Assembly (NCBI GenBank): GCA_017440465.1 | Contig: JAFSHF010000031.1 | Span: 6,064-70,063 of the forward strand | Length of the DNA: 64,000 nucleotides | Direction: 5' to 3' | From: Clostridia bacterium | GTDB taxonomy: Bacteria; Bacillota; Clostridia; Oscillospirales; QAKW01 | Shown here: positions 1,833 through 57,957 of the stretch, piece by piece | Layout of the letters: each line of letters opens with the position of its first letter | How positions within the stretch are numbered: the first letter of the stretch is position 1 | Program-made: the position numbers and the translations under genes | Notes under the pieces: generated by a model | What the model was told of the DNA's origin: nothing | Databases searched by the model: none | What the model saw: the letters and a program-made list of their open reading frames with translations, nothing else

Positions 1833-2102
1833 ATGTATCTTCATTTAGGGCAGGATACCCTCATTAAAATCAAAGAGATCATCGGCATCTTCGATATGGA
1901 TAAAGCCACCGTCTCCAAGCGCAGCCGCAACTATCTTGCCGCCAAGGAAAAAGAAGGCAAGGTTTATAACGTTGCCACCGATCTTCCCAAATCCTTTATC
2001 GTATGCCATCGGGATGGGGAAGAAGTGGTCTATATATCGCAGCTTTCACCCCAAACATTGATGAAACGCTGCAAATTCATTCAAAAAATCAGTTACATTT
2101 AA
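1833..2102 (+). CDS. remB: DUF370 protein (RemB/YaaB family)
   Basis: 89-aa ORF between recF and gyrB; sequence typical of DUF370 (IIGIFD..SKRSR). Confidence 0.8.
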   Translation: MYLHLGQDTLIKIKEIIGIFDMDKATVSKRSRNYLAAKEKEGKVYNVATDLPKSFIVCHRDGEEVVYISQLSPQTLMKRCKFIQKISYI

Positions 2103-2120
2103 GATAAGGAGAAGAAGAAA

Positions 2121-4049
2121 ATGGATCAGCAAAAAGTCACCAATCAATACGACGAATCCTCGATTCAGGTATTGGAGGGGCTGGAAGCCGTTCGGAAGAG
2201 ACCGGGGATGTATATCGGATCGACCTCGATCCGCGGATTGCACCACCTGGTGTATGAAATTGTGGATAATTCCATCGACGAAGCGTTGGCGGGGCACTGC
2301 GATACCATCAAGGTATCCATCCTGCCCGGCAACATCATCGAGGTGGAGGATAACGGGCGGGGTATCCCTGTCGGTATCCATCCTAAAATGGGGATCCCGA
2401 CCGTCGAGGTGGTCTTTACCGTTCTGCACGCAGGCGGTAAATTCGGCGGCGGCGGATATAAGGTCTCCGGCGGTCTGCACGGGGTCGGTGCCTCGGTCGT
2501 CAACGCCCTTTCGGAATGGCTGGAAGTGGAGGTCAAGGACGGTCAGCATATCTATACCCAGCGGTATGAGCGGGGTCATAGCGGTTCCACCCTGAAAAAG
2601 ATCGGGGATACCACCGAAAAGGGGACCAAGGTGCGCTTTTTGGCGGATGATCAGATCTTCGAGACCTTGGAATATGAATACGATGTGCTCTTAAAGCGTC
2701 TGCGGGAGCAGGCGTTCCTCAATGCGGGCCTGAAAATCGTCTTTGAAGACCTGCGGGGGGAAGAGAAAAAGAGCAAGACGATGTGCTATGAGGGCGGTAT
2801 CAAGGAATTTGTTACCTACCTGAATAAAAATAAAGAGGCGTTGCACGAAGAGATCATCTATGTTTCGGGGATGAAAAATACCTCCATGGCGGAGATCGCT
2901 ATGCAGTATACCACCCGCTACGATGAAACATTGATCTCCTTTGCCAACGATATCAATACCACCGAAGGCGGTACCCACGAATCGGGCTTTAAGAGCGCGC
3001 TGACCCGCGTTATCAATAACTATGCCAGAAAGTATAACTATCTCAAAGAAAAGGACAGCAACCTTTCCAGCGAGGACGTCCGCGAGGGCTTGACGGTCAT
3101 CATCAGCGTCAAGGTGGAGGAAGCGCAGTTTGAAGGGCAGACCAAGACCAAGTTGGGCAATTCCGAGGTGCAGGGTCTGGTCAGCTCCATCGTTTCCGAT
3201 AAGCTGATGGAATTCTTTGAAGAAAATCCCAAGACCGCCAAGACCATCATCAGCAAGGCAGTCTCCGCTTCCCAAGCCCGCGAGGCGGCGAGAAAGGCGA
3301 GAGAGCACGCAAGAAAGAGCGCCCTTTCCACCTCTATGAGCCTGCCCGGTAAATTGGCAGACTGCCAGAGCAAGGATAATAAGTATACCGAGATCTATAT
3401 CGTCGAGGGGGACTCGGCGGGCGGTTCCGCCAAGGAGGGCCGCGATCGGAGATTTCAGGCGATTTTGTCCCTTTGGGGTAAGATGCTCAATGTGGAAAAA
3501 TCCCGCTTGGACAAGGTGTATAACAACGATAAATTGCAGCCGGTCATCGCCGCGCTGGGCACCAATATCGGTGCCGATTTCGATATCGAAAAACTCCGCT
3601 ACGGCAAAGTCATCATTATGGCGGATGCCGACGTGGACGGCGCCCATATCCGCACCCTGCTTTTGACCTTCTTCTTCCGCTTTATGCGCCCCTTGGTAGA
3701 GGGCGGCTATGTCTATACCGCAGTCCCGCCCCTGTATAAGCTGGTCAAGGGCAAGGAGACCCGTTATGCCTATTCCGATGCCGAACGGGATGCCATCTCC
3801 GCCGAACTGCGCGGGGAGGACGGCAAGGGTAAGGTAGAGATCAGCCGCAATAAGGGTCTTGGTGAAATGGACGCCACCGAGCTTTGGGCGACCACCATGG
3901 ACCCCGAAACCCGTACTTTGAAGCAATTTACTCTGGGCGATGCCATCGCCGCCGATGAGACCTTCTCCATCCTGATGGGTGAAAAGGTGGAGCCGCGGCG
4001 GTTGTTCATCGAGCAAAATGCAAAATATGTTAATAACTTGGATGTGTAA
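2121..4049 (+). CDS. gyrB: DNA gyrase subunit B
   Basis: GHKL ATPase N-terminus, TOPRIM EGDSAGG, PLYKL motif, 642 aa. Confidence 0.98.
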
Positions 4050-10811: not shown

Positions 10812-13800
10812 ATGAAACGAATCATTTCTGCCGTTTTAATTTTGATAATGCTCATCCCCCCGATGGTCCTGCCCGCCGAGGCGGCGACCTTGGTGCAAGC
10901 CGATTCAGCGGTGCGTATTACCGCCGATAAGGCGGTGGCAGCGGTCGGAGAGACAGTGACCGTAACCGTAGCGTTTGAGAATATCCCTGCCTGCGGTGCG
11001 GTGGATTTTAATCTGGTCTATGATACGGAATATCTGCAGGCACCGGCGAAAAGTGATGTCTCGATGAATATTGGGGGGACGGTAAAAGATCGAAATCCCG
11101 CCTATAGTATCGACGAAAAGACGTCCGAAGAATATGCGGGGCGGCAAGCGGTGAAGGTGGTTGCCGCGGGTGATTCCAATTGCCTGAAGGGAAGCAGCGG
11201 AACGCTTTTCACAGTCAAATTCGTTGTGGCGAATGAAGCCCCGGCTCCGGGGATCCCTCTTGCGTTTTTCGGGACCTTTAGCGATCTCTACAGTAATCGG
11301 GATCTGCGTAATACCATCCAAGTGTTCAATACCCATATTGCCACCGCCGATCCGACCAAAGAGGTAACCGCGGTTGCTCTGAAGCAAGCGCCGACCAAGA
11401 CCGAATATGTGCAGGGGCAGGCGTTGAATTTGGAGGGCGGCCGCCTTTTGGTCAACTATGACGATAGTTCCTCTCAAGAGGTGTATCTATCCTTGGCGCA
11501 GATCACCCAATATGATTTTACCAAGCTTGGAACCCAGACCGTCAAGGCAGAGTATGCAGGCAAAGAGGTCTCTTTCGAGATCCAAACCGAAGCGTCCGTG
11601 CTCTCTTCCATCTCGGTCGGCCAGGTGCCGGCGACGGTCGAATATATCCAAGGAAAAACAGCTCAATTGGATCGTTCCGAAGGCGTCCTGCTGCTCCATT
11701 ATACCGGCGGCATTGTTAAGACCTTGGAGATGTCCGATGCGGAGGTCACCCTCTCCGGCTATGATAAGGATCAGTTGGGTGTTCAGAAGATCAAGGTGCA
11801 GTACGGCGGCTTTGAAACCGAATATAAGATTGCGGTAGTGAAAAAAGCCATCAGCGATATCGACGTCCGCACCCCGATGGTCTGCGATGCCTGCGGGAGC
11901 GAGTGGAGTGCTTTTGATTTAATTCAGGCGGCAGACGCAAGTGCCGATCCCTACTCGATGGACTTCAATGAGCGGCTGACTTATATCAAAAATACCGCCA
12001 ATAACGTCACCTGCCCTTCCGACACCTGCGCAGGCGCGACCTTTTCCACCAAAATGAAGATGGTCTATTTTGTCGGCGAAGACTTCGATGTGGGAAACGC
12101 CAAACTGTTTGTCACCTATTCCGGCGGTACCACCGAAGAGATCGATATGACCTTGGATATGGTGGAGTTCAAGAACACCTTTGCCACCACTCAAAACGTG
12201 GAGGTGGCGTATGGAGCGCAATGGATGTTGATCAAAAACGTCCAAACCAGAAAAAAAGAAGCCACCGCCATCACCGTCACCCGGAAGCCCAAGACCGAAT
12301 ATGTGAAAGGGCAGTCCTTCGACCGCACCGGCGGAATCATCCATGTGGAATATAATGACGGCTCGGAGGAAGACCTCCCGATGGAGCATGAGGATGTCCG
12401 AGTCCATTATAGTGGGATGGATGAGCTGGGCGAACATAGAGTCACCGTTTTTTATGAAAGCCAACAAGCCTACTTTTATATCAAAGTCATTGCGCGGGTG
12501 GTGAAATCCATCGCCGTTGATCCGGAAGCAACTTCGACCTATGTCCGAGGGCGGGAGCCGGACCCCGACACCAAATTGCTGGTAACCTATAACGACGATG
12601 AAACAGAGACCGCTTATCTTAGAAACGCAACCGTCGAAGGCTATAATTCCGAGCAGATCGGGCTGCAGGTGCTGACCATCACCTACGGCGGTGTGAATTG
12701 TAATTGGCCGGTCACGGTGGAAGAAAAAGTGGTGACCGCGCTGGAAGTGGTGGGTACTCTGCCTACCACCGTTTTGGAAGAAACAGAACTGAATTTAGAG
12801 GGTTGCACCCTCACCGCCACCTATAACGAAGGGAAGTTGGTGGAAGAAAATATCGCCATCACCCCCGATAGGATCAAGAACTTTGATAAAAGTCAGTGCG
12901 GTTTGCAGACCGTCACCATTGAGTTTGGAGAGGGGACCGTCACCTTTGAGATCACCGTCCTTGAAAAATCGCTGACTTCCATTGAGGTGGAGGGCGTCAA
13001 GGAGCAATATCTGCTGATGGATGCGTTGGACCGCTCGGTCGGCAAGATCAAGTTGATCTATAATAACGGTACCGTTGATTATATCGACTTCAGCGATGAA
13101 AACATTTCGGTGGAAGGCTTCCAAAGCGATGTCGCCGGAGAGCAATTGGTAACGGTGGAATATCAAGGGTTTACCGATACGTATCCGGTAACGGTCTACA
13201 TCGAGATCTTGAGCATCTCTGTTACCCCGCCCAAGAAAACCGCCTATATAGAAGGCGAACCGCTGGATCTGACCGAAGGGTTTCTTCATATCACCCAACC
13301 GAACGGAACGATCAATATACCCCTCTCCGAGGGGATGGTTTCGGGGTATGAAGCCGATCGTATCGGCGAGCAGACCCTCACCATCGAAGTGGGCGAGCAT
13401 ACCGCCGACTTCAAGGTTACAGTCAGAGAGAAGCAATTAACGGGCATTACCGTCAGCCCCGAAACCATCGATCATAACGAATGGGAAGAATTGGACTTCT
13501 CCCAAGTCGTCGTAACGGCGTGGTACGATAATAATACATCCAAGACGGTAACAGAAGAAGCAAGTAAAGCCGCGTACGATACTTATGTTATCTACACATA
13601 TGAGGGAAAAACCGCGACATTAAATGTAAATGTCATCAAACGAGCACCTATTTTCATCGAATGGGCAGAAGAACCTCAAAAGAGAACCTATTTTGCGGGC
13701 GAACCGTTGCTCAAAGACGGAACGATTCGGGTGCATTATAACGATCAGTCGAATGAGCAGCTCCCTTTGACCGATGAAAATGTATCGATCATCGGAGATA

Positions 13801-15140
13801 CCAATGTGGAAGGAGCGGAAACGGTCTATGTGAAATATAACGATTTAAGCCCCATTAGCTTTGAGATCACCGTCGTTCCGGTGGTGGTTGAGAAGATCGA
13901 GATTACTACCGAACCTGAGCGTAGCTATATTGAAGGGCAGCCTTTGAATGTGGCAGGCGGGATGATCCTCATCACCTATAATAATGAGGATACCGAGCCG
14001 CTGGCGATGGATGCCGCGGGGGTCACCCTTTCGGGCTATGATCCCAATAAGATCGGGGAGCAGACCGTCACCGTTACCTACGGCGGAAAAACCGCTACCT
14101 TTACCGTCAACGTTCGCGCCAGAAAGGCAGTAAGCATCCGTATATCGACTCGACCCAAGACGGAGTACTTAGAGGGCAAGGATACTGCGCTGAATTTAGC
14201 GGGCGGAAAACTGACCGTGTATTATGATAATAATACTTCGGCAACCATCAATCTTACTGACTCGCAGGTTACAGTAAGTGGTTTTAAAGCGACGCAGATC
14301 GGGGATCAAACGATCACAGTAAGCTACCCCGGCGTTTCATCTGCGACCTTTACTATTACGATGAATAAAAAAGCGGTGGAATCCATCGCCATCGCCGCGA
14401 TGCCGACCAAGATGATGTATCGGCAGGGCGTCGAAAAATTTGATCCCGCCGGCGGGTTGATTACGGTTTTTTATAATAACGATACCAAAGAGACCGTCCA
14501 TCTTTCCAAAGCAACCGTCAGCGGATTTTCCAATCTCTTTGCAGGGGATGTCACCGTCACCGCAGTCTATCAAGGCTCTGCGGTGGAGTTTAAGGTGCTG
14601 ATCCTTGCGGAAAATCCCTTTAAAGACGTCAAGGCGAACGAATATTATGAGACGCCGGTTCTTTGGGCGGTGACCAAGGAGATCACCAAAGGAACGGCAG
14701 AGGATACCTTCAGCCCCAACGATGAATGTACCCGCGGCCAGATCGTCACTTTCCTCTGGCGTGCCGCCGGGGAGCCCGCGACCGAAACCGCCAAAAATCC
14801 GTTTAAGGATGTCAAAAAAGGCGAATATCATTATAATGCCGTTCTTTGGGCGGTGGAAAACGGCATCACCAACGGGATGGATGCCACCCACTTTGCTCCC
14901 GATGCCTCTTGTACCCGCGGGCAGGTCGTCACCTTCCTTTGGCGGGCGGCAGGAGAGCCTGCGCCCGAAACCGCCAAAAATCCGTTTAAGGATATCAAAA
15001 AGAGCGAATATTATTATAACGCCGTTCTTTGGACGGTGGAAAACGGCATCACCAACGGAATGACCGACACGACCTTTGCGCCGAATTCAACCTGTACGCG
15101 CGGACATATAGTCACCTTCCTCTACCGCACCTATGACTAA
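10812..15140 (+). CDS. Giant surface protein: N-terminal cohesin-like domain, about 13 bacterial Ig-like repeats, three C-terminal SLH-like repeats
   Basis: Signal peptide MKRIISAVLIL; cohesin-like GETVTVTVAFENIPACGAVDFNLVYD; ~80-aa repeats (KTEYxxGxxLxLxGGxLxVxY..GxQxVTVxY); three near-identical NPFKDVK..WAVENGITNG..CTRGQVVTFLWRAAGEP units. Confidence 0.85.
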   Translation: MKRIISAVLILIMLIPPMVLPAEAATLVQADSAVRITADKAVAAVGETVTVTVAFENIPACGAVDFNLVYDTEYLQAPAKSDVSMNIGGTVKDRNPAYSIDEKTSEEYAGRQAVKVVAAGDSNCLKGSSGTLFTVKFVVANEAPAPGIPLAFFGTFSDLYSNRDLRNTIQVFNTHIATADPTKEVTAVALKQAPTKTEYVQGQALNLEGGRLLVNYDDSSSQEVYLSLAQITQYDFTKLGTQTVKAEYAGKEVSFEIQTEASVLSSISVGQVPATVEYIQGKTAQLDRSEGVLLLHYTGGIVKTLEMSDAEVTLSGYDKDQLGVQKIKVQYGGFETEYKIAVVKKAISDIDVRTPMVCDACGSEWSAFDLIQAADASADPYSMDFNERLTYIKNTANNVTCPSDTCAGATFSTKMKMVYFVGEDFDVGNAKLFVTYSGGTTEEIDMTLDMVEFKNTFATTQNVEVAYGAQWMLIKNVQTRKKEATAITVTRKPKTEYVKGQSFDRTGGIIHVEYNDGSEEDLPMEHEDVRVHYSGMDELGEHRVTVFYESQQAYFYIKVIARVVKSIAVDPEATSTYVRGREPDPDTKLLVTYNDDETETAYLRNATVEGYNSEQIGLQVLTITYGGVNCNWPVTVEEKVVTALEVVGTLPTTVLEETELNLEGCTLTATYNEGKLVEENIAITPDRIKNFDKSQCGLQTVTIEFGEGTVTFEITVLEKSLTSIEVEGVKEQYLLMDALDRSVGKIKLIYNNGTVDYIDFSDENISVEGFQSDVAGEQLVTVEYQGFTDTYPVTVYIEILSISVTPPKKTAYIEGEPLDLTEGFLHITQPNGTINIPLSEGMVSGYEADRIGEQTLTIEVGEHTADFKVTVREKQLTGITVSPETIDHNEWEELDFSQVVVTAWYDNNTSKTVTEEASKAAYDTYVIYTYEGKTATLNVNVIKRAPIFIEWAEEPQKRTYFAGEPLLKDGTIRVHYNDQSNEQLPLTDENVSIIGDTNVEGAETVYVKYNDLSPISFEITVVPVVVEKIEITTEPERSYIEGQPLNVAGGMILITYNNEDTEPLAMDAAGVTLSGYDPNKIGEQTVTVTYGGKTATFTVNVRARKAVSIRISTRPKTEYLEGKDTALNLAGGKLTVYYDNNTSATINLTDSQVTVSGFKATQIGDQTITVSYPGVSSATFTITMNKKAVESIAIAAMPTKMMYRQGVEKFDPAGGLITVFYNNDTKETVHLSKATVSGFSNLFAGDVTVTAVYQGSAVEFKVLILAENPFKDVKANEYYETPVLWAVTKEITKGTAEDTFSPNDECTRGQIVTFLWRAAGEPATETAKNPFKDVKKGEYHYNAVLWAVENGITNGMDATHFAPDASCTRGQVVTFLWRAAGEPAPETAKNPFKDIKKSEYYYNAVLWTVENGITNGMTDTTFAPNSTCTRGHIVTFLYRTYD

Positions 15141-15301
15141 ACCGTTGAAATGGGCGCATCTTCCGATTTTTTGCCCCTCGGCATATCATTATATAGCCGA
15201 GGGATCAAAGAAATCGAAACCTGCATCCCATTTGAACGGTTTCGACCGAGAGCAAAAATGAAATAAAAAATCGACCTTGAATTTCAAGGTCGATTCTTTT
15301 T
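15141..15301 (+). repeat. Module X copy 1: conserved leader, two hairpins and a terminator (candidate small RNA / 3'UTR element)
   Basis: Starts at the stop codon of the 10812 gene. Hairpin 1 is 15175-15203 (CCCTCGGC/GCCGAGGG, loop ATATCATTATATA). Hairpin 2 is 15214-15245. Terminator is 15271-15301. Confidence 0.6.
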
Positions 15302-16262
15302 GTAGGGAACAGGTTTTCCATCCCGCTATGATCCGTACCAAATGAATTGGTACGAAACAATCCAAACGATTTGGGTGTACCAAATGAATTGGTACGGAAG
15401 CATACAAATGATTTGTATATGCACAATTGAATTGTGGATCGAAACACAAATGATTTGGGGTACCAAATGATTTGTTAGGCACAGATATTTAATTAATTTG
15501 TAGGGGACGATTGTCTTCATCGTTCCGCTTTTGCCGTACCAAATGAATTGGTACGAAAGCATACAAATGATTTGTATGTGCACAATTGAATTGTGGATCG
15601 AAACACAAATGATTTGGGGTACCAAATGATTTGTTAGGCACAGATATTTAATTAATTTGTAGGGGAAGATTGTCTTCATCGTCCCGCTTTTGTCGTACCA
15701 AATGAATTGGTACGAAACAATCCAAACGATTTGGGTGTACCATATGAATTGGTACGAAAGCATACAAATGATTTGTATGTGCACAATTGAATTGTGCACG
15801 ATCCCTTTGCAACATCAAAAAATTCATCGCAAGCCGTTGTTTGCTCGATATTTTTTGTGTTGCGGCAGCTGCTAACCTGCTCCCTTCATCGTCCCGTTTG
15901 CAACATCAAAATATTCATCGCGCGGTGCGCTCGATATCTTTTGTGTTGCGGCACCTGCTAACCTGCTCCCTTCATCGTCCCGTTTGCAACATCAAAATAT
16001 TCATCGCGCGGTGCGCTCGATATCTTTTGTGTTGCGGCACCTGCTAACCTGCTCCCTTCATCTGCCACTGGCAGCGGTCGCAGTCGCAACCACAGGCAGC
16101 GGTCACAGTCGCAACCAAATGAATTGGCACGAAAAACACAAAAGATTTGTGTTTCATACCCCAAATGAATTGGGGGTACCAAATGATTTGGTAGGTGACC
16201 GCCCAAACGAATTGTGGACAAAAAAAAGAAGTGTGCATCGAAACACAAATGATTTGGGGGTT
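15302..16262. repeat. CAAWTGAWTTG palindrome mosaic, locus 1 (about 23 cores, in 159-198 bp higher-order units opened by GTAG hairpins)
   Basis: Examples: GTACCAAATGAATTGGTAC at 15335-53, 15377-95 and 15536-54; also CATACAAATGATTTGTATG, GCACAATTGAATTGTGC and CCCCAAATGAATTGGGG. GTAG hairpins at 15302, 15500 and 15659. Confidence 0.85.
15806..16062. repeat. Tandem repeat, 3 units of 91/86/~80 bp, embedded in locus 1
   Basis: Units start at 15806, 15897 and 15983. Units 2 and 3 are identical where both are present. Each unit can form a long hairpin GCAACATCAAAA...TTTTGTGTTGC. Confidence 0.85.
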
Positions 16263-16338: not shown

Positions 16339-17397
16339 ATGAAACGAATCATTTCTTGTTTACTGATTTTTGTAATGCTGATGGCCGCCATTCCCGCATC
16401 GGCGGCAGCGGATAAAACCGCGCGTTTGGTGCTGGATGCGCCGTATGGTGTGGTCGGTCAGGAGTTGGAAGTCCAAGTCCGTGTGGAAAACCTTGTCGAA
16501 TGTGCCGGGTTCACTATCGTTTTAGAATACGATCAGAACGTTTTGAAACCCTTAGATTTTAAAGAAGAGAAGCTCGGTGGATTGATGGCCTCCGAAGAAA
16601 AGGGAAAAGGAGTCTATGCATTAATATGGATAGGGTTTGATGATACCAAAAACGATATCGTAACGATTAAAGGCGATGTTGCTATCGGAACGTTTAAATT
16701 CAAAGTGCCTTCCATGCCTAAAAATGGAATGATTGCGATAGATATTAGAGAAGAAGATACAATGTTTGCCGATAATTCTCAAGAAACCGAAGAAATCGAT
16801 TATTCATTTGATCCTGTGTTCATTCCTATGTATAAAAACCATCCCTTTACCGATGTCACGGCTGATTGGTATAAGGAAGCGGTATTGTTTGCATACAATA
16901 ATAATTTGATGAACGGTATGGGCGAGAATAAGTTCAAGCCCGATGACGCCACCACCCGTGCGATGTTGACGACCATTCTTTACCGCTATGAGGGGGAACC
17001 CGATGTTTCGGCAAAAGCCCCCTTTACCGATCTGGAGCAGAATTGGTATAAAACCCCCATCAACTGGGCATACGAAAAAGGCGTTGTCAAGGGTATGACC
17101 AACACGACCTTCGCGCCGGAGGAAAAGGTTACCCGCGAGCAGATCGCGGTGATGATGTATCGTTATGCCGAGGGCAAGAAGCAGGATGTTTCTCAAAGAA
17201 AGAAGATCTCTTCTTTTTCCGATGCCAAAAAGGTTAGCTCTTGGGCAAAAGAAGCGATGGAGTGGGCGTATGCCGAGGGCTTAATCACCGGCAACTCCAT
17301 CAACGGCAAGGTACTGCTGGATCCTCAGGGCAACGCTACCCGCGCTCAGATCGCCACCATTCTGATGCGGTACATTAAGAACGCGGCCGAACAATAA
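16339..17397 (+). CDS. Cohesin-domain protein with three SLH repeats
   Basis: Signal peptide MKRIISCLLIF (first 18 nt identical to the 10812 gene); cohesin-like GQELEVQVRVENLVECAGFTIVLEYD; SLH repeats. Confidence 0.85.
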   Translation: MKRIISCLLIFVMLMAAIPASAAADKTARLVLDAPYGVVGQELEVQVRVENLVECAGFTIVLEYDQNVLKPLDFKEEKLGGLMASEEKGKGVYALIWIGFDDTKNDIVTIKGDVAIGTFKFKVPSMPKNGMIAIDIREEDTMFADNSQETEEIDYSFDPVFIPMYKNHPFTDVTADWYKEAVLFAYNNNLMNGMGENKFKPDDATTRAMLTTILYRYEGEPDVSAKAPFTDLEQNWYKTPINWAYEKGVVKGMTNTTFAPEEKVTREQIAVMMYRYAEGKKQDVSQRKKISSFSDAKKVSSWAKEAMEWAYAEGLITGNSINGKVLLDPQGNATRAQIATILMRYIKNAAEQ

Positions 17398-23762: not shown

Positions 23763-23908
23763 GTAAAAGACTTGGATATTTGCGCAGACCGAAAAAGCAA
23801 AAAATAAAGAAAAAATAAATGCTTTAATCTCTGCGTAACCAAAAAATAGGAATAAAAGCGGCTCAAATGAGCCGCTTTTAATTTAAAATTTTTTGCTTTT
23901 TCTATCGC

Positions 23909-23956
23909 CGATCTCGGCGTCTACCGTACCGATGTACGCCGACGCCACCGAGATCG
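23909..23956. repeat. L-hairpin copy 2 (same loop, stem CGATCTCGG/CCGAGATCG)
   Basis: Read directly. Confidence 0.75.
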
Positions 23957-24158
23957 AAGATTCTGCATCAAATCTTCAAGTCTTTTACAGTTTCTGCTCC
24001 TACATAAGTCTGTGCGAAAAGGCGGATATTGGCGCAGACCGCAAAAAACAAAAAAGAAATAATATAGGTCTTTTCAGTTTATGCGAATGCGAAGAATAAG
24101 GAATAAAAGCGGCTCATTTGAGCCGCTTTTAATTTAACTTTTTGTTTTTTGCTATTTC

Positions 24159-24382
24159 CGATCTCGGTGCGGGGAAGCGGGGGTAATTTTGCCTTGCCGC
24201 AAAAAGCGGTCGAAGATTTTTAAAACAGACGAATTTCGGTTGAGCAAGGCAAAAGCGCAGGCAATACCGTCGTATTGCCGAGCATTTTAACGCAGCACAG
24301 GCGGAATTGGTCGGTTTAAAAACAAGGATAAAGTTACCCCCGCTTCCCCTTGTACCGATGTACGCCGACGCCACCGAGATCG
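24159..24382. repeat. L-hairpin copy 3, interrupted in its loop by element E1
   Basis: Left stem at 24159-67 and right stem at 24374-82; the loop remnant GTACCGATGTACGCCGAC follows E1. Confidence 0.7.
24171..24349. mobile_element. Foldback element E1 (179 bp, 16-bp perfect terminal inverted repeat GGGGAAGCGGGGGTAA)
   Basis: Present in one of two otherwise homologous L-hairpin loops; its internal core is homologous to E2. Confidence 0.45.
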
Positions 24383-24485
24383 AAAATTCTACATCCAATC
24401 TTCGCCTTTTTGGTGGTTCCTGCTTCTACATAAGTCTGTGCGTAAAAATGCGCAGACCGCAAAAAACAAATTTAATTTCATAGTG

Positions 24486-24955: not shown

Positions 24956-25061
24956 AGCACACCTCTTAAAAATAATAGATATACCATATATCCATTTTAA
25001 ACATTATAACACATAAAACATCTAAAATGAATATACAATATATTTATTATGAGGTGTATTT

Positions 25062-25262
25062 ATGGCAATCAAGAGTGTTTCAATAAGAATTGAAGAAGAA
25101 ATGTTGAATAAAATCGCACACATTGCTGAGTACGAAGGCAGAAGTGTAAACAGCCAAGTTCTTGTTTTAATAAGAGAAAATATTAAGGCTTTTGAAGATG
25201 CGAATGGTGCTATTGACGGCAACATTTCTCCGGCTTCAAATGTCAAACCGACTCGTAAGTAA
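25062..25262 (+). CDS. Ribbon-helix-helix (Arc/CopG-like) DNA-binding protein
   Basis: N-terminal beta-strand/helix pattern KSVSIRIEEEMLNKIAHIAEYEGRSVNSQVLVLI; followed by an intrinsic terminator. Confidence 0.55.
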   Translation: MAIKSVSIRIEEEMLNKIAHIAEYEGRSVNSQVLVLIRENIKAFEDANGAIDGNISPASNVKPTRK

Positions 25263-25265
25263 AAA

Positions 25266-25323: not shown

Positions 25324-25537
25324 GTAGGGGACGGGTTTCCCGTCCCGCTATGACCCGCAACCAAATGAATTGGTAGGGGTAACAAATGAATTGGTGGGGG
25401 GGTAACAAATGATTTGGTAGGGGGACATACAAATGATTTGTAGGCTTGCACAAATGATTTGTGCAAAGAACGTAGCAAATGAATTGGTACAGTAATGCAC
25501 AAATGAATTGTGCAACAGACCCCAAATCATTTGGGGT
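25324..25537. repeat. CAAWTGAWTTG palindrome array, locus 2 (8 cores, opened by a GTAG hairpin)
   Basis: GTAGGGGACGGGTTTCCCGTCCC at 25324, then 8 cores, ending with the inverted CCCCAAATCATTTGGGG next to the TTGACA -35. Confidence 0.85.
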
Positions 25538-35461: not shown

Positions 35462-35604
35462 TGCGTGTTTTCTCCTTTTATAAAGTTGTTTTTTCTCCGT
35501 GATCGAAACACCTTTTTTTGCACACCCCACCGTTCGTTGCATCCTTCTGCCCGATGCACAAACGATGAAATGTGGCCATTCATCGTGACGAGCATATTGA
35601 TCTT

Positions 35605-35750
35605 CTGCGCGGAAAGTATTCCGGCTCGCAACTAAAACGCATCCGCTTCGCCTTCCCATTTTTTAAAAAACAGTGGCATAATGAAGCCTCGCTCGTTGCA
35701 CACGGCGGCGGGACCGCGGGGGCATCGCACCCCTCTTCCATCCCGCGCAG
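35605..35750 (-). promoter_or_regulatory. Cobalamin (B12) riboswitch aptamer
   Basis: Minus strand: P1 CTGCGCGG (35743-35750) pairs with CCGCGCAG (35605-12); GGAUGGAAGAGGGGUGCGAUGCCCCCGCGGUCCCGCCGCCGUGU core; B12 box GCCACUG (35671-77) followed by GGGAAGGC. Confidence 0.75.
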
Positions 35751-35769
35751 ATTGGAGATCTTGACTAAT

Positions 35770-53912: not shown

Positions 53913-55553
53913 ATGATAACAGGTAAGCAGTATTGCGAGATGGTCATCTCCGGATGCAATCATATCAGCAACCAGAAAGCAGCCATCAATGCATTGAACG
54001 TGTTCCCGGTCCCCGATGGGGATACCGGTACCAATATGTCCCTGACCATCTCTGCCGCCGCACGCGAACTGCAGAATTTGGGGGATTGCACCATCGCCCA
54101 GGCATCGGATCGTGCCGCAGGCGCGATGCTCAAGGGCGCGCGGGGCAACAGCGGTGTTATTTTGTCCTTGCTCTTCCGTGGTATTTCCAAGGGCTTGAAG
54201 GATAAAGAGACCGCCAACGCCGCCGATTTTTCCGCAGCGTTGCATCTGGGTGTCAAAGCCGCCTATCGCGCGGTAATGAAGCCCACCGAGGGTACGGTGC
54301 TGACCGTTTCCCGCGTGGCGGCGGAAAACCTTTCCAAATATTTAGAGAATGCCCCCGAAACCACCGCCGAGCAGGCGTTGGCTTATTATGTGGAGCAGGC
54401 AAACGACGTTTTGCAGCAGACCCCCGAAATGCTGCCTCAGTTGAAGCAAGCAGGGGTGGTCGATGCGGGCGGTAAGGGCTTTGCCGTTGTGATGGAGGGT
54501 ATGCTCTCCGCACTGCGCGGTCAACCCATCGAGCCGCAGGAAGCACCCGAAGCGGTTGCTGATTCGGTGGTGGATGAACTGCCGATGCGGGAAGAGGACA
54601 TCACCTTTACCTATTGCACCGAGTATATCGTCACTGTGGATGAGACCGCCAAGAAGGATAACCCCGCCGATCTGCGCTCCTACTTGGAATCCATCGGTGA
54701 TAGCGTGGTCTGCGTACCCGATAACGAGATCATCAAGGTCCATGTCCATACCAACCACCCCGGTCGCGCCATCGAAGAAGCGCTCCGCTACGGTTCGTTG
54801 GTCAATTTGAAGATCGATAATATGAAGGAAGAGTTCCGCGCCCGCCAAAAGAGCGCACCCGCCGAACCCGAAAATGCCTTGGCAGAGCCTACCAAAAAGT
54901 ATGGCTTTGTCTCGGTCGTTGCCGGCGCCGGTCTGGCGGCGGTCTGCAAGGATCTGGGTGTCGATACCGTTGTGGAAGGCGGTCAGACCATGAACCCCTC
55001 CACCGCCGATATCCTGGCGGCGGTCAACCGCACCCCCAGCGAAGTCGTCTTCGTTCTTCCCAATAATAAAAATATCATTATGGCGGCAGAGCAGGCAAAA
55101 GAGCTCTCCACCGCAAAAGAAGTGGTGGTCATCCCCAGCAAGACCGTGCCCCAAGGCATCACCGCCATGCTTGGCTTTGATGAGACCTTGGAGACCGAGG
55201 CTCTTGCCGAAGCAATGACCGCCATGCTGGAGACTGTCAAGACCGCGCAGGTCACCTATGCCGCCCGCGACTCTGTTTTCGATGAAAAGGAGATCAAGGA
55301 AGGCCAACTGCTGGGCTTGATGGAGACCAAAGTCACCTTTGTGGAAGATCAGATGGAAGACGTTGTCCGCAAGCTCTTTGAAGAGCTGGGTAAGGACGGC
55401 GGCTCCTATATCAATGTCTACTATGGTGAGGATGTCACCGAAGAGCAGGCCGAGGCCATCACCGCGCAGATCCAAGCGCAGATGCCTCAGGCGGAGGTAA
55501 TGTGTTTGCCCGGAGGGCAACCGGTGTACCATTATATCTTTTCTGTGGAATAA
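53913..55553 (+). CDS. yloV: DAK2-domain fusion protein YloV
   Basis: N-terminal DAK2 (DGDTGTNM) plus C-terminal DegV-like region, 546 aa. Confidence 0.9.
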   Translation: MITGKQYCEMVISGCNHISNQKAAINALNVFPVPDGDTGTNMSLTISAAARELQNLGDCTIAQASDRAAGAMLKGARGNSGVILSLLFRGISKGLKDKETANAADFSAALHLGVKAAYRAVMKPTEGTVLTVSRVAAENLSKYLENAPETTAEQALAYYVEQANDVLQQTPEMLPQLKQAGVVDAGGKGFAVVMEGMLSALRGQPIEPQEAPEAVADSVVDELPMREEDITFTYCTEYIVTVDETAKKDNPADLRSYLESIGDSVVCVPDNEIIKVHVHTNHPGRAIEEALRYGSLVNLKIDNMKEEFRARQKSAPAEPENALAEPTKKYGFVSVVAGAGLAAVCKDLGVDTVVEGGQTMNPSTADILAAVNRTPSEVVFVLPNNKNIIMAAEQAKELSTAKEVVVIPSKTVPQGITAMLGFDETLETEALAEAMTAMLETVKTAQVTYAARDSVFDEKEIKEGQLLGLMETKVTFVEDQMEDVVRKLFEELGKDGGSYINVYYGEDVTEEQAEAITAQIQAQMPQAEVMCLPGGQPVYHYIFSVE

Positions 55554-55769
55554 CCGTTGAAATCGGCGCAGACCGACAGGAATAAGGAAAGAACCTGCCT
55601 TGGCAGGTTCTTTTTTATGTCTTTTCCGTTTTTTCACCTTCGGCATATCATTATATAGCCGAAGGATGAAAGAAACGAAAATCTGCATCCAATTTGAACG
55701 GTTTTAGGGAAGAGATTTAAAAAGAATGAAAAAGAACCGACCTTGAAAGGTCGGTTCTTCTATTTTTTT
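55554..55769 (+). repeat. Module X copy 2
   Basis: Starts at the stop codon of yloV with the same CCGTTGAAATSGGCGCA leader. Hairpin 1 is 55637-55665 (CCTTCGGC/GCCGAAGG, identical loop). Hairpin 2 is 55676-55707. Terminator is 55734-55769. Confidence 0.6.
55591..55616 (+). terminator. Intrinsic terminator of yloV
   Basis: GAACCTGCC/GGCAGGTTC stem plus T6. Confidence 0.8.
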
Positions 55770-55777
55770 AAGGGGCT

Positions 55778-55980
55778 GTACCAAATGAATTGGGAGGTAC
55801 CAAATGATTTGTTAGGAAGGCGAATAAATGAATTATGCATAGAGCGTACCAAAAGAATTGGTACGGAAACATACAAATGATTTGTATATACCCCAAATGA
55901 ATTGGGGGGGGTACCAAATGAATTGTATATACCCCAAATGAATTGGGGGGACCAAATGATTTGTTAGGAAGGTGCACAAA
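55778..55980. repeat. CAAWTGAWTTG palindrome array, locus 3 (9-10 cores)
   Basis: GTACCAAATGAATTGGGA, CATACAAATGATTTGTAT, ACCCCAAATGAATTGGGGGG (twice), GTACCAAAAGAATTGGTAC and others. Confidence 0.8.
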
Positions 55981-56168
55981 TTCGACCTCTACATGTTATT
56001 TATAATTCGTCTGCGAGGCAGACACCGAAATTATTCATTATTCATCAGCGTAAGCGACTTCATTATTCATTGAAAATTCTGTCGAATGAATGATGAATAT
56101 TGAATAATGAAAAATGAATAATACAAAACAAAAATCCCATCGACTTGCAGTCGACAGGATTTTCGTTT

Positions 56169-56256
56169 TGGCGGAGGAGAAGGGATTCGAACCCTTGTGC
56201 CTTTTGGGCAAACGGTTTTCAAGACCGCCTCGTTATGACCACTTCGATACTCCTCC
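56169..56256 (-). tRNA. tRNA-Ser (anticodon UGA) with encoded CCA
   Basis: Hand-folded: acceptor GGAGGAG/CTCCTCC, anticodon stem GCGGT/ACCGT with loop CTTGAAA, long variable arm TGCC/GGCA, T-arm AAGGG-TTCGAAT-CCCTT, 3' GCCA. Confidence 0.9.
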
Positions 56257-56298: not shown

Positions 56299-56353
56299 GG
56301 CGCAGGTAAAAAATCGTAGGGGATGGGCAAGATAACAGAAAGAGGTGAATCTT

Positions 56354-57247
56354 ATGTGCACAGCGATTTTATGGAAGCATTATTTCGGCAGGACCTTGGA
56401 TTATGAACTTTCTTTTGGGGAGCAGGTGGTTTTGGTACCGCGGCGGATGCCGCTGGAGTTTTGTATCAAGCCGCCCCTCAAAAGTCATTACGCCATCTTA
56501 GGGATGGCGTCGGTACAGCAAGGGGTGCCGCTCTTTTTTGATGGGATGAACGAGCGGGGGCTGGCGATGGCGGGGCTGCAGTTTGCAGAGTTCGCCGATT
56601 ATTCCAAAGGCGGGACCCTTGCGCCCTTTGAGCTGATTCCTTGGGTTTTGGGGCAATGCGCCGATCTGGCGCAGGCGCGGCGGCTTTTGCGTGGGCAGGA
56701 GCTTTGCGATATTTCCTTTGCGAAAGACTTGCCCAACGCACCGCTCCATTGGATGATCGCCGATGGGAGCGGCGCGCTGATCTTAGAGCCGACGGCGGAG
56801 GGGTTGCGGATGTATGAAGCCACCGAGGGGGTGATGACCAACAGCCCGCCCTATCCCTATCACAAACTGCGATACGAAGAACTGCGGCATCTTTCAGCAG
56901 AGCCTGCGCCCCATTCAGCGCGGCGGGGGCTCCAAGCGGTGGGGTTGCCGGGGGATTATTCCTCCGCCTCCCGCTTTATTCGGGCGGCATTTATCCGCGC
57001 CCATTTGCGGGGAGAGGGGGAAGGAGCCTTCTATTCTATGACCGATAACATCTCCGTTCCCCGCGGGTGCATTCGCCTGCCCCAAGGGGATGCTTTTACC
57101 CGCTATACCTGTTGTTGCGATCTTAAAGGCGGCATCTATTCCTATACCACCCATCAAACCCGCGCGCCCATCGCTTTTTCCTTTGCCGAGCGGGATTTGG
57201 ACGGCGATCAAATTTTTTGTTGCAAATTGGAAAAAACTATGATATGA
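56354..57247 (+). CDS. Choloylglycine hydrolase-family (linear amide C-N, Ntn) hydrolase
   Basis: Met-Cys N-terminus (MCTAI) giving the Cys nucleophile; start set at the ATG at 56354 with SD GAGGTG. Confidence 0.85.
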   Translation: MCTAILWKHYFGRTLDYELSFGEQVVLVPRRMPLEFCIKPPLKSHYAILGMASVQQGVPLFFDGMNERGLAMAGLQFAEFADYSKGGTLAPFELIPWVLGQCADLAQARRLLRGQELCDISFAKDLPNAPLHWMIADGSGALILEPTAEGLRMYEATEGVMTNSPPYPYHKLRYEELRHLSAEPAPHSARRGLQAVGLPGDYSSASRFIRAAFIRAHLRGEGEGAFYSMTDNISVPRGCIRLPQGDAFTRYTCCCDLKGGIYSYTTHQTRAPIAFSFAERDLDGDQIFCCKLEKTMI

Positions 57248-57256
57248 TAGAGAACA

Positions 57257-57358
57257 TCAGAGTAGATCATTATGGGTTAAGTGCTTGAAGGACGGGGAGT
57301 TGCCTTCGGGACGAAGAAAGGCGGATGCCTTTTGCCGTATGGTGATCGCATCCCGCTG
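57257..57358 (+). promoter_or_regulatory. THF (tetrahydrofolate) riboswitch
   Basis: AGAGUAGAUCAUU..GGGUUAAGUG..GACGAAG..GGUGAUCGCAUCCCGCUG resembles the THF-I consensus as I recall it; followed by an SD-sequestering hairpin ACCTCCT/AGGAGGT plus T-run; upstream of folT. Confidence 0.7.
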
Positions 57359-57420
57359 CCGAAAAAGATAGGACGATACCTCCTGATTTTCGAAGTGGAA
57401 TGAAGGAGGTATTTTTTATT

Positions 57421-57957
57421 ATGAATAGCAAAAAACTCAGATTGTTGTGCCTTACCGCGGTGATGGCGGCGGTCTATGTGGGGCTGGATTTCCTTTCGGA
57501 AAGTGCCAGCGCGGTGTTCGGCGGGTCGATGAAAATTTCGCTGAGCGGCTTGCCGGTGGTCATCGTTGCCATCGTTGCAGGGCCCCTTTGGGGCGCGGTG
57601 ACGGGATTTATCGGCGAGCTTGTTGTCCAATTATGGATCTATGGGCTGATGCCGACCACCCTGCTTTGGGTATTGCCCGCGATGGCGCGGGGGCTTGTGA
57701 TGGGCTGGTTGTTCCGCGCTTTTAAAAAGAGCACCCATCCTGCCATCCTTGCGGTGGAAACGGTGCTTTCTTCGGTGGTGGTGACGCTGCTCAATACCGT
57801 CGGCATCCTGATCGACCAGACCATCTACGGCTATTCCACCTATATTGCCACTTTGGTCAAGATCCCCCTGCGGATCGCCACCGGCGCGGTCTCCGCCATC
57901 ATTTTTGCGTTGATCCTGCCGATCGTTCTGCGGTCGTTGAAAAAGTACATCAGATGA
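57421..57957 (+). CDS. folT: Folate-family ECF transporter S component
   Basis: About 6-TM, 178-aa protein behind the THF riboswitch; start at the ATG at 57421, inside track ORF 57400..57957. Confidence 0.8.
   Translation: MNSKKLRLLCLTAVMAAVYVGLDFLSESASAVFGGSMKISLSGLPVVIVAIVAGPLWGAVTGFIGELVVQLWIYGLMPTTLLWVLPAMARGLVMGWLFRAFKKSTHPAILAVETVLSSVVVTLLNTVGILIDQTIYGYSTYIATLVKIPLRIATGAVSAIIFALILPIVLRSLKKYIR

Follow-up and report, generated by a model that had tools for sequence, protein, structure and literature searches.

The element that lies directly behind a cohesin/SLH gene, and again behind yloV, in the analysed stretch of DNA (64,000 nt, here called the window) is referred to as Module X. It probably belongs to a family of MITE-like foldback repeats that are dispersed and non-coding, and its nearest functional analogues are SPRITE, ERIC, and Correia. 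This reading is based on its presence in multiple copies behind unrelated genes, on its terminal inverted repeats, and on its organization as one long palindrome. According to a previous study, bacterial MITEs are shorter than 200 bp, carry terminal inverted repeats (TIRs), and form long stem-loops by pairing of the 5' end with the 3' end (Delihas 2008, PMC2229807). Module X is likewise shorter than 200 bp and non-coding, with terminal inverted repeats and many dispersed copies at non-homologous sites. The first-pass annotation had proposed a functional RNA and named a match to the end of an IS or MITE as an argument against this proposal; the resemblance now found is one of kind, consisting of TIRs, a single palindrome, and dozens of dispersed copies.

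Copies in the Window

Copy 1 extends from 15139/15141 to 15242 and lies directly 3' of the TAA (15138-15140) of a cohesin/Big_3/SLH gene (10812-15140, 1442 aa), followed by a host terminator up to 15301. Copy 2 extends from 55552/55554 to 55704 and lies directly 3' of the TAA (55551-55553) of a DAK2/FakA-like yloV gene (53913-55553), followed by a host terminator up to 55769. Alignment and gene calls thus bear out the earlier description of two copies that both start at the base after the TAA of unrelated genes. The two copies are homologous, with a 76-nt core that is 87% identical in pairwise alignment; the homology begins exactly at the stop codons, and at both loci it runs on downstream, into arrays of other repeats.

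Copy 1 represents the short form, and all of its parts are given on the plus strand. The left arm of the terminal inverted repeat, AAACCGTTGAAATGGG (15139-15154), which shares its first two A's with the TAA stop, pairs with the right arm, CCCATTTGAACGGTTT (15227-15242), and the central G15147 stands opposite G15234 as a conserved mismatch. The foldback interior (15155-15226), delimited by the fold and by stem covariation across type A copies, contains an extended hairpin 1, with the stem CCCTCGGC (15175-15182) and GCCGAGGG (15196-15203), the tip ATATCATTATATA (15183-15195), and the outer stem TTTTTTG/CAAAGAAA. The intrinsic terminator of the cohesin/SLH gene, a bidirectional hairpin AATCGACCTTGAA..TTCAAGGTCGATT with a T-run (15269-15301), belongs to the host locus and lies outside the repeat.

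Copy 2 represents the long form, also on the plus strand. Its left arm, AACCGTTGAAATCGGC (55552-55567), was placed by end-pairing analysis and takes its first two A's from the yloV TAA. It is followed by a terminator cassette, GCGCAGACCGAC..AAGGAAAGAACCTGCC-TTGG-CAGGTTC-TTTTTTATG (55568-55621), which is missing in short forms, and by the extended hairpin 1 with an A-rich linker (55622-55688), which was recognized by fold and stem covariation. Hairpin 1 consists here of the stem CCTTCGGC (55637-55644) and GCCGAAGG (55658-55665), the tip at 55645-55657, and the outer stem TTTCA/TGAAA. The boundary of the right arm, CCAATTTGAACGGTTT (55689-55704), was set by locus L227 of MAG JAZSBU, where another form lies between the same flanks. 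The intrinsic terminator of the yloV locus (AAGAACCGACCTTGAAAGGTCGGTTCTT plus a T-run, 55732-55769) lies outside the repeat and is kept in L227, where the repeat is of another type.

Both copies are thus followed by CGACCTTGAA..AAGGTCG terminators with T-runs, as had been noted before. However, the CGACCTT stem occurs only at copy 1, at copy 2, and at their orthologues L018 and L016, and because it is confined to these two loci and their orthologues, the trailing terminators are a property of the host genes and not of the repeat. With 14 pairs, a 4-nt loop, and TTTTTT, the terminator inside copy 2 (55585-55616) qualifies as an intrinsic (rho-independent) terminator. It had been regarded as an extra insertion peculiar to copy 2; it is present as described, but it is the mark of the canonical long form, and the cassette is found in 14 of 29 aligned copies. 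Its stem is compensated across copies (GAACCTGTC/GACAGGTTC, GAACCCGC/GCGGGTTC, and GGGACCTCT/AGAGGTCCC).

Structure of the Repeat Family

The family ends, (A)AACCGWTGAAATSGG and CCSATTTGAWCGGTT(T), are inverted repeats that form a helix of 14-16 bp with a fixed G:G mismatch inside it. The short form is a single imperfect foldback or palindrome of about 100-104 nt, and the long form, the common one, is about 150 nt and corresponds to the short form plus an intrinsic-terminator cassette of about 50 nt in the left arm. Complete copies measured 101-158 nt as extracted, with the exception of L107 (192 nt), in which another repeat is inserted. The central hairpin is either of type A (tip ATATCATTATATA) or of type B (tip GTATCGACATAC), and the tip motif TATC..ATA is invariant and common to both subfamilies. 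Copy 1 folds into a nearly continuous 50-bp hairpin (-49.6 kcal/mol, z -8.6); the fold of copy 2 adds a side arm to the same hairpin (-64.8 kcal/mol, z -7.3).

End-to-end folding was found in all 30 copies, and RNAalifold predicts the end-to-end helix unaided. Among the 28 distinct copies of the 29-copy alignment, 93.9% of the cells of this helix are paired, compared with only 17-47% in slid-partner controls; both sides have changed at 8 of 14 pairs (42 such cells), a result that none of 500 shuffles matched. The compensated arm variants include AATCG/CGATT, ACGAAT/ATTCGT, GACCG/CGGTC, CGCT/AGCG, and a C-G to G-C change at an S position. These co-varying positions flank invariant 6-nt cores in the arms (TGAAAT/ATTTGA), and the G:G mismatch at the arm centre (G9/G155) recurs in 27 of the 28 distinct sequences.

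The compensated stem of hairpin 1, on which the first-pass annotation relied, holds across the family: CTC/GAG occurs in seven sequence variants and TTC/GAA in six, with no mismatch, and the stem reaches about 16 bp when extended outward, where further compensated variants occur. The loop of 13 nt is identical in both window copies, as had been claimed, but it closes further (AUAU pairs with AUAU, leaving one bulged A and a 4-nt loop), it is replaced by GTATCGACATAC in the type B subfamily, and its invariance is partly by construction, since copies were fetched by an exact 19-mer match. The proposed hairpin 2 did not hold up. It has no compensatory pairs, its pairing (81.4%) equals that of shuffled alignments (81.3%), and its 3' half consists of right-arm bases, which pair with the supposed leader.

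Several other readings of these sequences were rejected. A small peptide was excluded, since the forward ATG of copy 2 is ATC in copy 1. The antisense ORF, 448 codons from the reverse ATG at 55688, was rejected, as 1-nt indels break the frame in other copies; on inspection of the alignment, no ORF of copy 2 is kept in other copies, where starts are missing or 1-nt indels occur. A type I toxin was also rejected. A promoter at the TATAAT-like tip was discarded, as no promoter-like site was found on either strand and type B copies are without the motif.

Distribution and Search Results

The tip of hairpin 1 plus three stem pairs, taken as the 19-mer GGCATATCATTATATAGCC, has 19 exact matches, which are spread over four MAGs of uncultured Eubacteriales/Clostridia from the gut; one MAG accounts for 11 of them. 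A profile from the 19-mer copies recovered about 12 more complete copies with the same ends and a type B hairpin (..GACGTATCGACATACGTC..), as well as partial copies; type B and further copies are located in the 19-mer MAGs and in two more. The module had been presented as a pair of copies; over 35 copies of the family were found, distributed among six or more related MAGs of Eubacteriales, and both the copy counts and the range rest on genomes that are all fragmented MAGs. MAG JAZSBU alone carries at least 15 copies after unrelated genes. The upstream genes include those for MutS2, Asd, a GalE-like protein, Jag, FtsK, RsmG, RF2, GGGtGRT, cohesin/SLH, and YloV, and non-orthologous copies are 96-97% identical by our own count on the alignments.

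The Rfam search of the whole window at gathering thresholds returned only a THF riboswitch, a cobalamin riboswitch, and a tRNA, with none at either copy, and in E-value mode over 55500-56000 all matches were far below gathering and on terminator hairpins; the previous statement that the module belongs to no known RNA family is therefore upheld. BLAST against plasmids and phages and the search of viral contigs gave no family matches. In the JGI metagenomes, the tip 19-mer had no match, and a left-arm 20-mer matched six times, each time by chance in unrelated GC-rich DNA. When genome contigs were scanned with a degenerate left-arm pattern, the matches listed were mostly fortuitous ones in coding DNA. 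Of the metatranscriptomes, only a single one contained 6% of the words, and these covered pieces of conserved genes and the tRNA, not the module; none of the RNA runs searched contains the SLH gene, the host of copy 1.

Position and Orientation at Gene Ends

In the first set, each of the 30 complete copies is located where a long co-directional ORF ends. Relative to the left-arm CCG, the stop codon ends between -13 and +12 nt, and in most copies it ends 0-2 nt ahead of this CCG. Only 15.5% of the strand-specific non-coding positions in the family loci qualify as such a site (P about 7e-21). Three genes have an ORF that continues into the arm and uses the arm's own TGA as its stop. At convergent gene pairs in L002 and L011 there is one copy per gene, arranged head to head, indicating that the orientation follows the gene and not the replication strand. 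The element is placed ahead of the gene's own terminator.

The element might bring its own TAA, an idea to which stop usage lends no support, as the stops beside the element (22 TAA, 7 TGA, and 1 TAG) resemble the window background (26, 13, and 1); a counterpoint is the TAAACCG found out of frame in L107 and L245. The C-terminus of YloV (..SVE*) is native, with the same end in 22 homologues without the element. A native stop might also have been displaced to the right flank: by our own count, a stop triplet directly follows CGGTTT in 15 of 34 copies, a figure confounded by the T-run followed by purines.

Turnover and Constraint between Related Genomes

The window and the MAGs JAZSBU and JAZTXG differ by about 10-12% across the yloV region. 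At the yloV site, the window and JAZTXG (L016) carry a type A long copy, identical at 152 of 155 positions (98%), compared with 153 of 200 third codon positions (76.5%) and 64 of 75 positions of the downstream spacer beside it. At the same site JAZSBU (L227) carries a type B short copy with the same flanks (TAA | ... | TAGGGAAGAG). At the SLH site, the copy is short and 100% identical in the window and JAZSBU (L018), and long in JAZTXG (L015); at the FtsK site it is type A long in L006 and degenerate type B in L008/L229. These comparisons suggest that the copies are both constrained or homogenised and exchangeable, and, judged from them, the sequence constraint on the element is real. Among the orthologous sites compared, no clean empty site was found, only swapped forms, and metagenome contigs break in the repeats.

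The degenerate copies at the FtsK gene end of two MAGs (L229:5587-5678 and L008 about 2100-2440, minus strand; L006 is from a third MAG) are type B copies that lack the outer 8 bp of both arms symmetrically, with a TAA on each side (TAA|AATGGG...CCCATTT|TAA).

Proposed Mode of Spread and Its Difficulties

If Module X is a MITE-like repeat, it would spread or be exchanged as DNA through a trans-acting transposase or recombinase, and recombination or conversion between copies might add to the exchange. At gene ends the element may be tolerated or favoured, as the transcribed 3'UTR would gain a stable 3' hairpin from the short form or a terminator from the long form. Its most likely role would be that of a generic 3'-end module rather than of a gene-specific regulator. 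A cis effect on the host mRNA, by a 3'-end hairpin or terminator, is plausible, and an RNA function or protein binding of the element is possible.

Some observations stand against the MITE-like reading. With the boundaries of the maximal stem, a TA target-site duplication on both sides was found in none of 25 copies, and the commonest flanks were a T on the left and a T on the right (11 of 25); in our own reading, TA..TA flanks suit about one third of the copies, and only if an asymmetric placement of the ends is allowed. Neither an autonomous element nor a transposase with matching ends was found in about 50 family loci (about 350 kb). A transposase binding both ends predicts that these are conserved, but here they co-vary within a single genome. 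Nor would pure selfishness explain the stop adjacency of 30 out of 30 copies, the fixed orientation, or the identity of 98% against 76.5%. What keeps the family of interest is its strict placement at stop codons, its single orientation, and its high conservation, none of which is yet explained.

We give a rather small chance to a gene-end-homing element, which would be inserted or exchanged like a cassette at stop codons in the orientation of the gene, sensing the end of translation or of coupled transcription, and which the host would keep as a modular 3'-end cassette under sequence-level selection. Its folded single strand might, for example, be recognized where the non-template DNA becomes exposed downstream of the stop codon.

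Alternative Explanations

The functional RNA that was first suggested, in the form of a conserved 3'UTR element, a 3'UTR-derived sRNA, or a protein-binding RNA with plus-strand hairpins under selection, appears unlikely. The compensated stems of hairpin 1 and of the end-to-end helix would suit it, as would the invariant tip motif in both subfamilies, an orthologous copy far more conserved than synonymous sites, and a strict co-orientation and start at the stop codon by which the element would necessarily be co-transcribed. However, an intrinsic terminator lies between the arms of the long form, so most long-form transcripts could not form the end-to-end helix, yet this helix co-varies in long forms too. 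The minus-strand RNA folds more stably in 26 of 30 copies (mean -59.1 vs. -53.1 kcal/mol), and the transition-type mismatches of the terminal helix on the plus strand are two G.U against six A.C. The better minus-strand fold, the few G.U mismatches, and the covariation of long forms leave no signature of selection on a plus-strand transcript. Compensation itself can be mimicked, since DNA quasi-palindromes gain compensatory changes by template switching without selection, as known from the work of Ripley and Lovett, although template switching would not keep the G:G mismatch. Dozens of near-identical copies after genes without a common function, the lack of a promoter-like site, and the unsupported hairpin 2 also speak against this RNA. 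Of the structure described in the first-pass annotation, hairpin 1 and the terminators stand, while hairpin 2, the leader, and the extra terminator had been misread; the sRNA interpretation is not supported, though it keeps a small probability.

A structure-specific single-stranded DNA site, in which the folded top strand is recognized by a tyrosine or HUH recombinase as for attC, REP/REPIN, or the ends of IS200/IS605, seems quite improbable as well. Insertion into the non-template strand exposed past the translation stop would set both position and orientation, and the invariant 6-nt cores beside co-varying positions, the nearly constant G9/G155 mismatch, the lack of a target-site duplication, the absolute orientation despite nearly symmetric ends, the cassette-like replacement between fixed flanks, and the GTAG-headed REP-like hairpins in the same spacers are in line with such a site. 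Against it, no recombinase gene lies beside any copy examined, copies are not in cassette arrays, the gene-following orientation at convergent pairs misfits a replication-strand mechanism of the IS200/IS605 type, and the R-loop or non-template-strand step is pure conjecture. The last alternative, an immobile ancient duplicated intergenic sequence left by segmental duplication or arising from convergent terminator-like sequences, is highly implausible. The two window loci do share downstream repeats and similar host terminators; but the upstream genes are unrelated and the homology begins exactly at the stop codon, the copies number dozens across several genomes, non-orthologous copies are nearly identical, and forms are swapped at orthologous sites. 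The MITE-like repeat remains our preferred reading.

Comparison with Known Repeats

The terminator-like repeat SPRITE shows enrichment at CDS 3' ends, and a target-site duplication is not established for it (2011, PMC3049150). Like Module X, it is a short, AT-rich, dispersed Firmicute repeat near CDS 3' ends with a predicted stem followed by a U-rich tract, simple A-run/T-run termini, and no established target duplication, and its co-option as a terminator has been proposed (PMC3049150). However, SPRITE has no sequence similarity to Module X, in which specific arms of 14-16 bp with a fixed mismatch are combined with a separate central hairpin and, optionally, a terminator cassette; Module X lies within a few nt of the stop in one orientation, whereas for SPRITE the position is no more exact than near the end of a CDS.

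ERIC/IRU and Correia (CREE/NEMIS) elements, bacterial MITEs that are palindromic over their whole length, are also non-coding, measure 100-160 bp, carry terminal inverted repeats, and give a stem-loop transcript paired from the 5' to the 3' end; they have short and long isoforms that differ by an internal segment, are located in transcribed intergenic regions, and may have orientation-dependent effects on mRNA through RNase E or RNase III (PMC2229807, PMC10969869). Unlike Module X, for which no TSD was found and which is co-oriented and abuts the stop, they show TA duplications, both orientations, and many kinds of intergenic sites. They come from another host phylum and have no sequence similarity to Module X.

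The REP/BIME of enterobacteria and pseudomonads and REPIN resemble Module X as extragenic palindromes after stops, which form mosaic clusters with other repeats, act as mRNA 3' stabilisers, and have conserved hairpin mismatches. They differ in being 20-40 nt, GC-rich, GTAG/GGAG-headed, and RAYT-mobilised, whereas Module X is about 100-150 nt and AT-rich. A REP/REPIN reading was rejected on the AT-richness and the lack of a GTAG head, and the nearby GTAG hairpins are a separate repeat. Ribosomes can reportedly be stalled by a REP that lies no more than about 15 nt from a stop codon, a finding of Liang and Deutscher from 2015. The MIRU described by Supply et al. in 1997 are said to be dispersed repeats tied to an upstream stop codon and oriented with the operon, as Module X is; unlike Module X, they are reportedly tandem direct repeats with small ORFs for translational coupling, and neither foldback nor terminator.

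The attC consensus reads R'' RYYYAAC ... R' GTTRRRY, and attC sites form cassette arrays next to intI. An integron attC was rejected, since the motifs of Module X, GTTGAAAT ... ATTTGAAC, stand in the reverse order (GTT../..AAC) and are one base longer, and the copies are scattered behind housekeeping genes. A PATE of the IS200/IS605 type, with subterminal hairpins, no terminal inverted repeats, and replication-strand orientation, was rejected because the element has TIRs and an orientation set by the gene.

Other Repeats and Genes in the Window

Arrays of mini-palindromes are located at 15339-16256, 25362-25533, and 55782-55963 of the window, with 41 units spaced about 18-24 nt and nearly all on the plus strand. 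Their core, (C)AAATGAWTT(G), is constant (30 occurrences vs. 0.17 expected), and the outer arms are variable and complementary (gtacc/ggtac, catac/gtatg, cccc/gggg, tgcac/gtgca); at least four extra flank pairs are present in 46% of the units, compared with 1.6% in controls. Two loci have an array whose end directly abuts the -35 of the following gene (GTAATTGACA.. at 25537 and GTTAGTGACA.. at 16260). The unit GTACCAAATGAATTGGTAC is limited to the same Eubacteriales MAG clade, save three single stray matches. These arrays may be more unusual than Module X.

The palindrome arrays are opened by GTAG-headed, GC-rich hairpins, REP-like in form (e.g., GTAGGGGACGGGTTTCCCGTCCCGC), at 15302-15330, 15500-15530, 15659-15690, and 25324-25347; such a hairpin is also inserted inside a Module X copy of L010, and others are found in L005 and L008. 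A tandem repeat of 86 nt has three copies at 15843-16100 (98% and 69% identity to the first), and the same unit is dispersed elsewhere: it lies inside a Module X copy of L107, truncates a copy in L005, and occurs in the opposite orientation in L015 and L227. The spacer after copy 1 varies in length between strains: in a metagenome contig from goat gut (run X7), 15393 is joined to 16129, with 735 nt skipped. A second cohesin and SLH gene (16339-17397, +) follows directly after this repeat-filled spacer.

The spacer after copy 2 is bounded by a tRNA gene (56172-56256, -). Next to it are a gene of the choloylglycine (bile-salt) hydrolase family (56345-57247, +), which fits a gut origin, and the THF riboswitch (57256-57360, +, 76.4 bits) ahead of an ORF at 57400-57957; the cobalamin riboswitch is located at 35594-35762 (-, 72.1 bits). 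At 23841-24446 and about 25060-25265, a 95-nt repeat (85% identical) and a terminator-containing 59-nt repeat (83%) each occur twice, upstream of a small ORF that we read as a putative ribbon-helix-helix protein, and the third palindrome array follows directly after.

Implications

What was presented as a candidate new regulatory RNA is recast as an uncatalogued repeat family. For annotation it matters that these elements break MAG assemblies, several copies being located where contigs end, and that conserved sRNAs could be annotated in their place. If targeting to gene ends or domestication by the host holds true, the family would offer a tractable mobile 3'-end module, composed of a terminator and a stabilising hairpin, in Firmicutes, and a natural test of the effects of stop-codon hairpins on termination, ribosome release, and mRNA decay.
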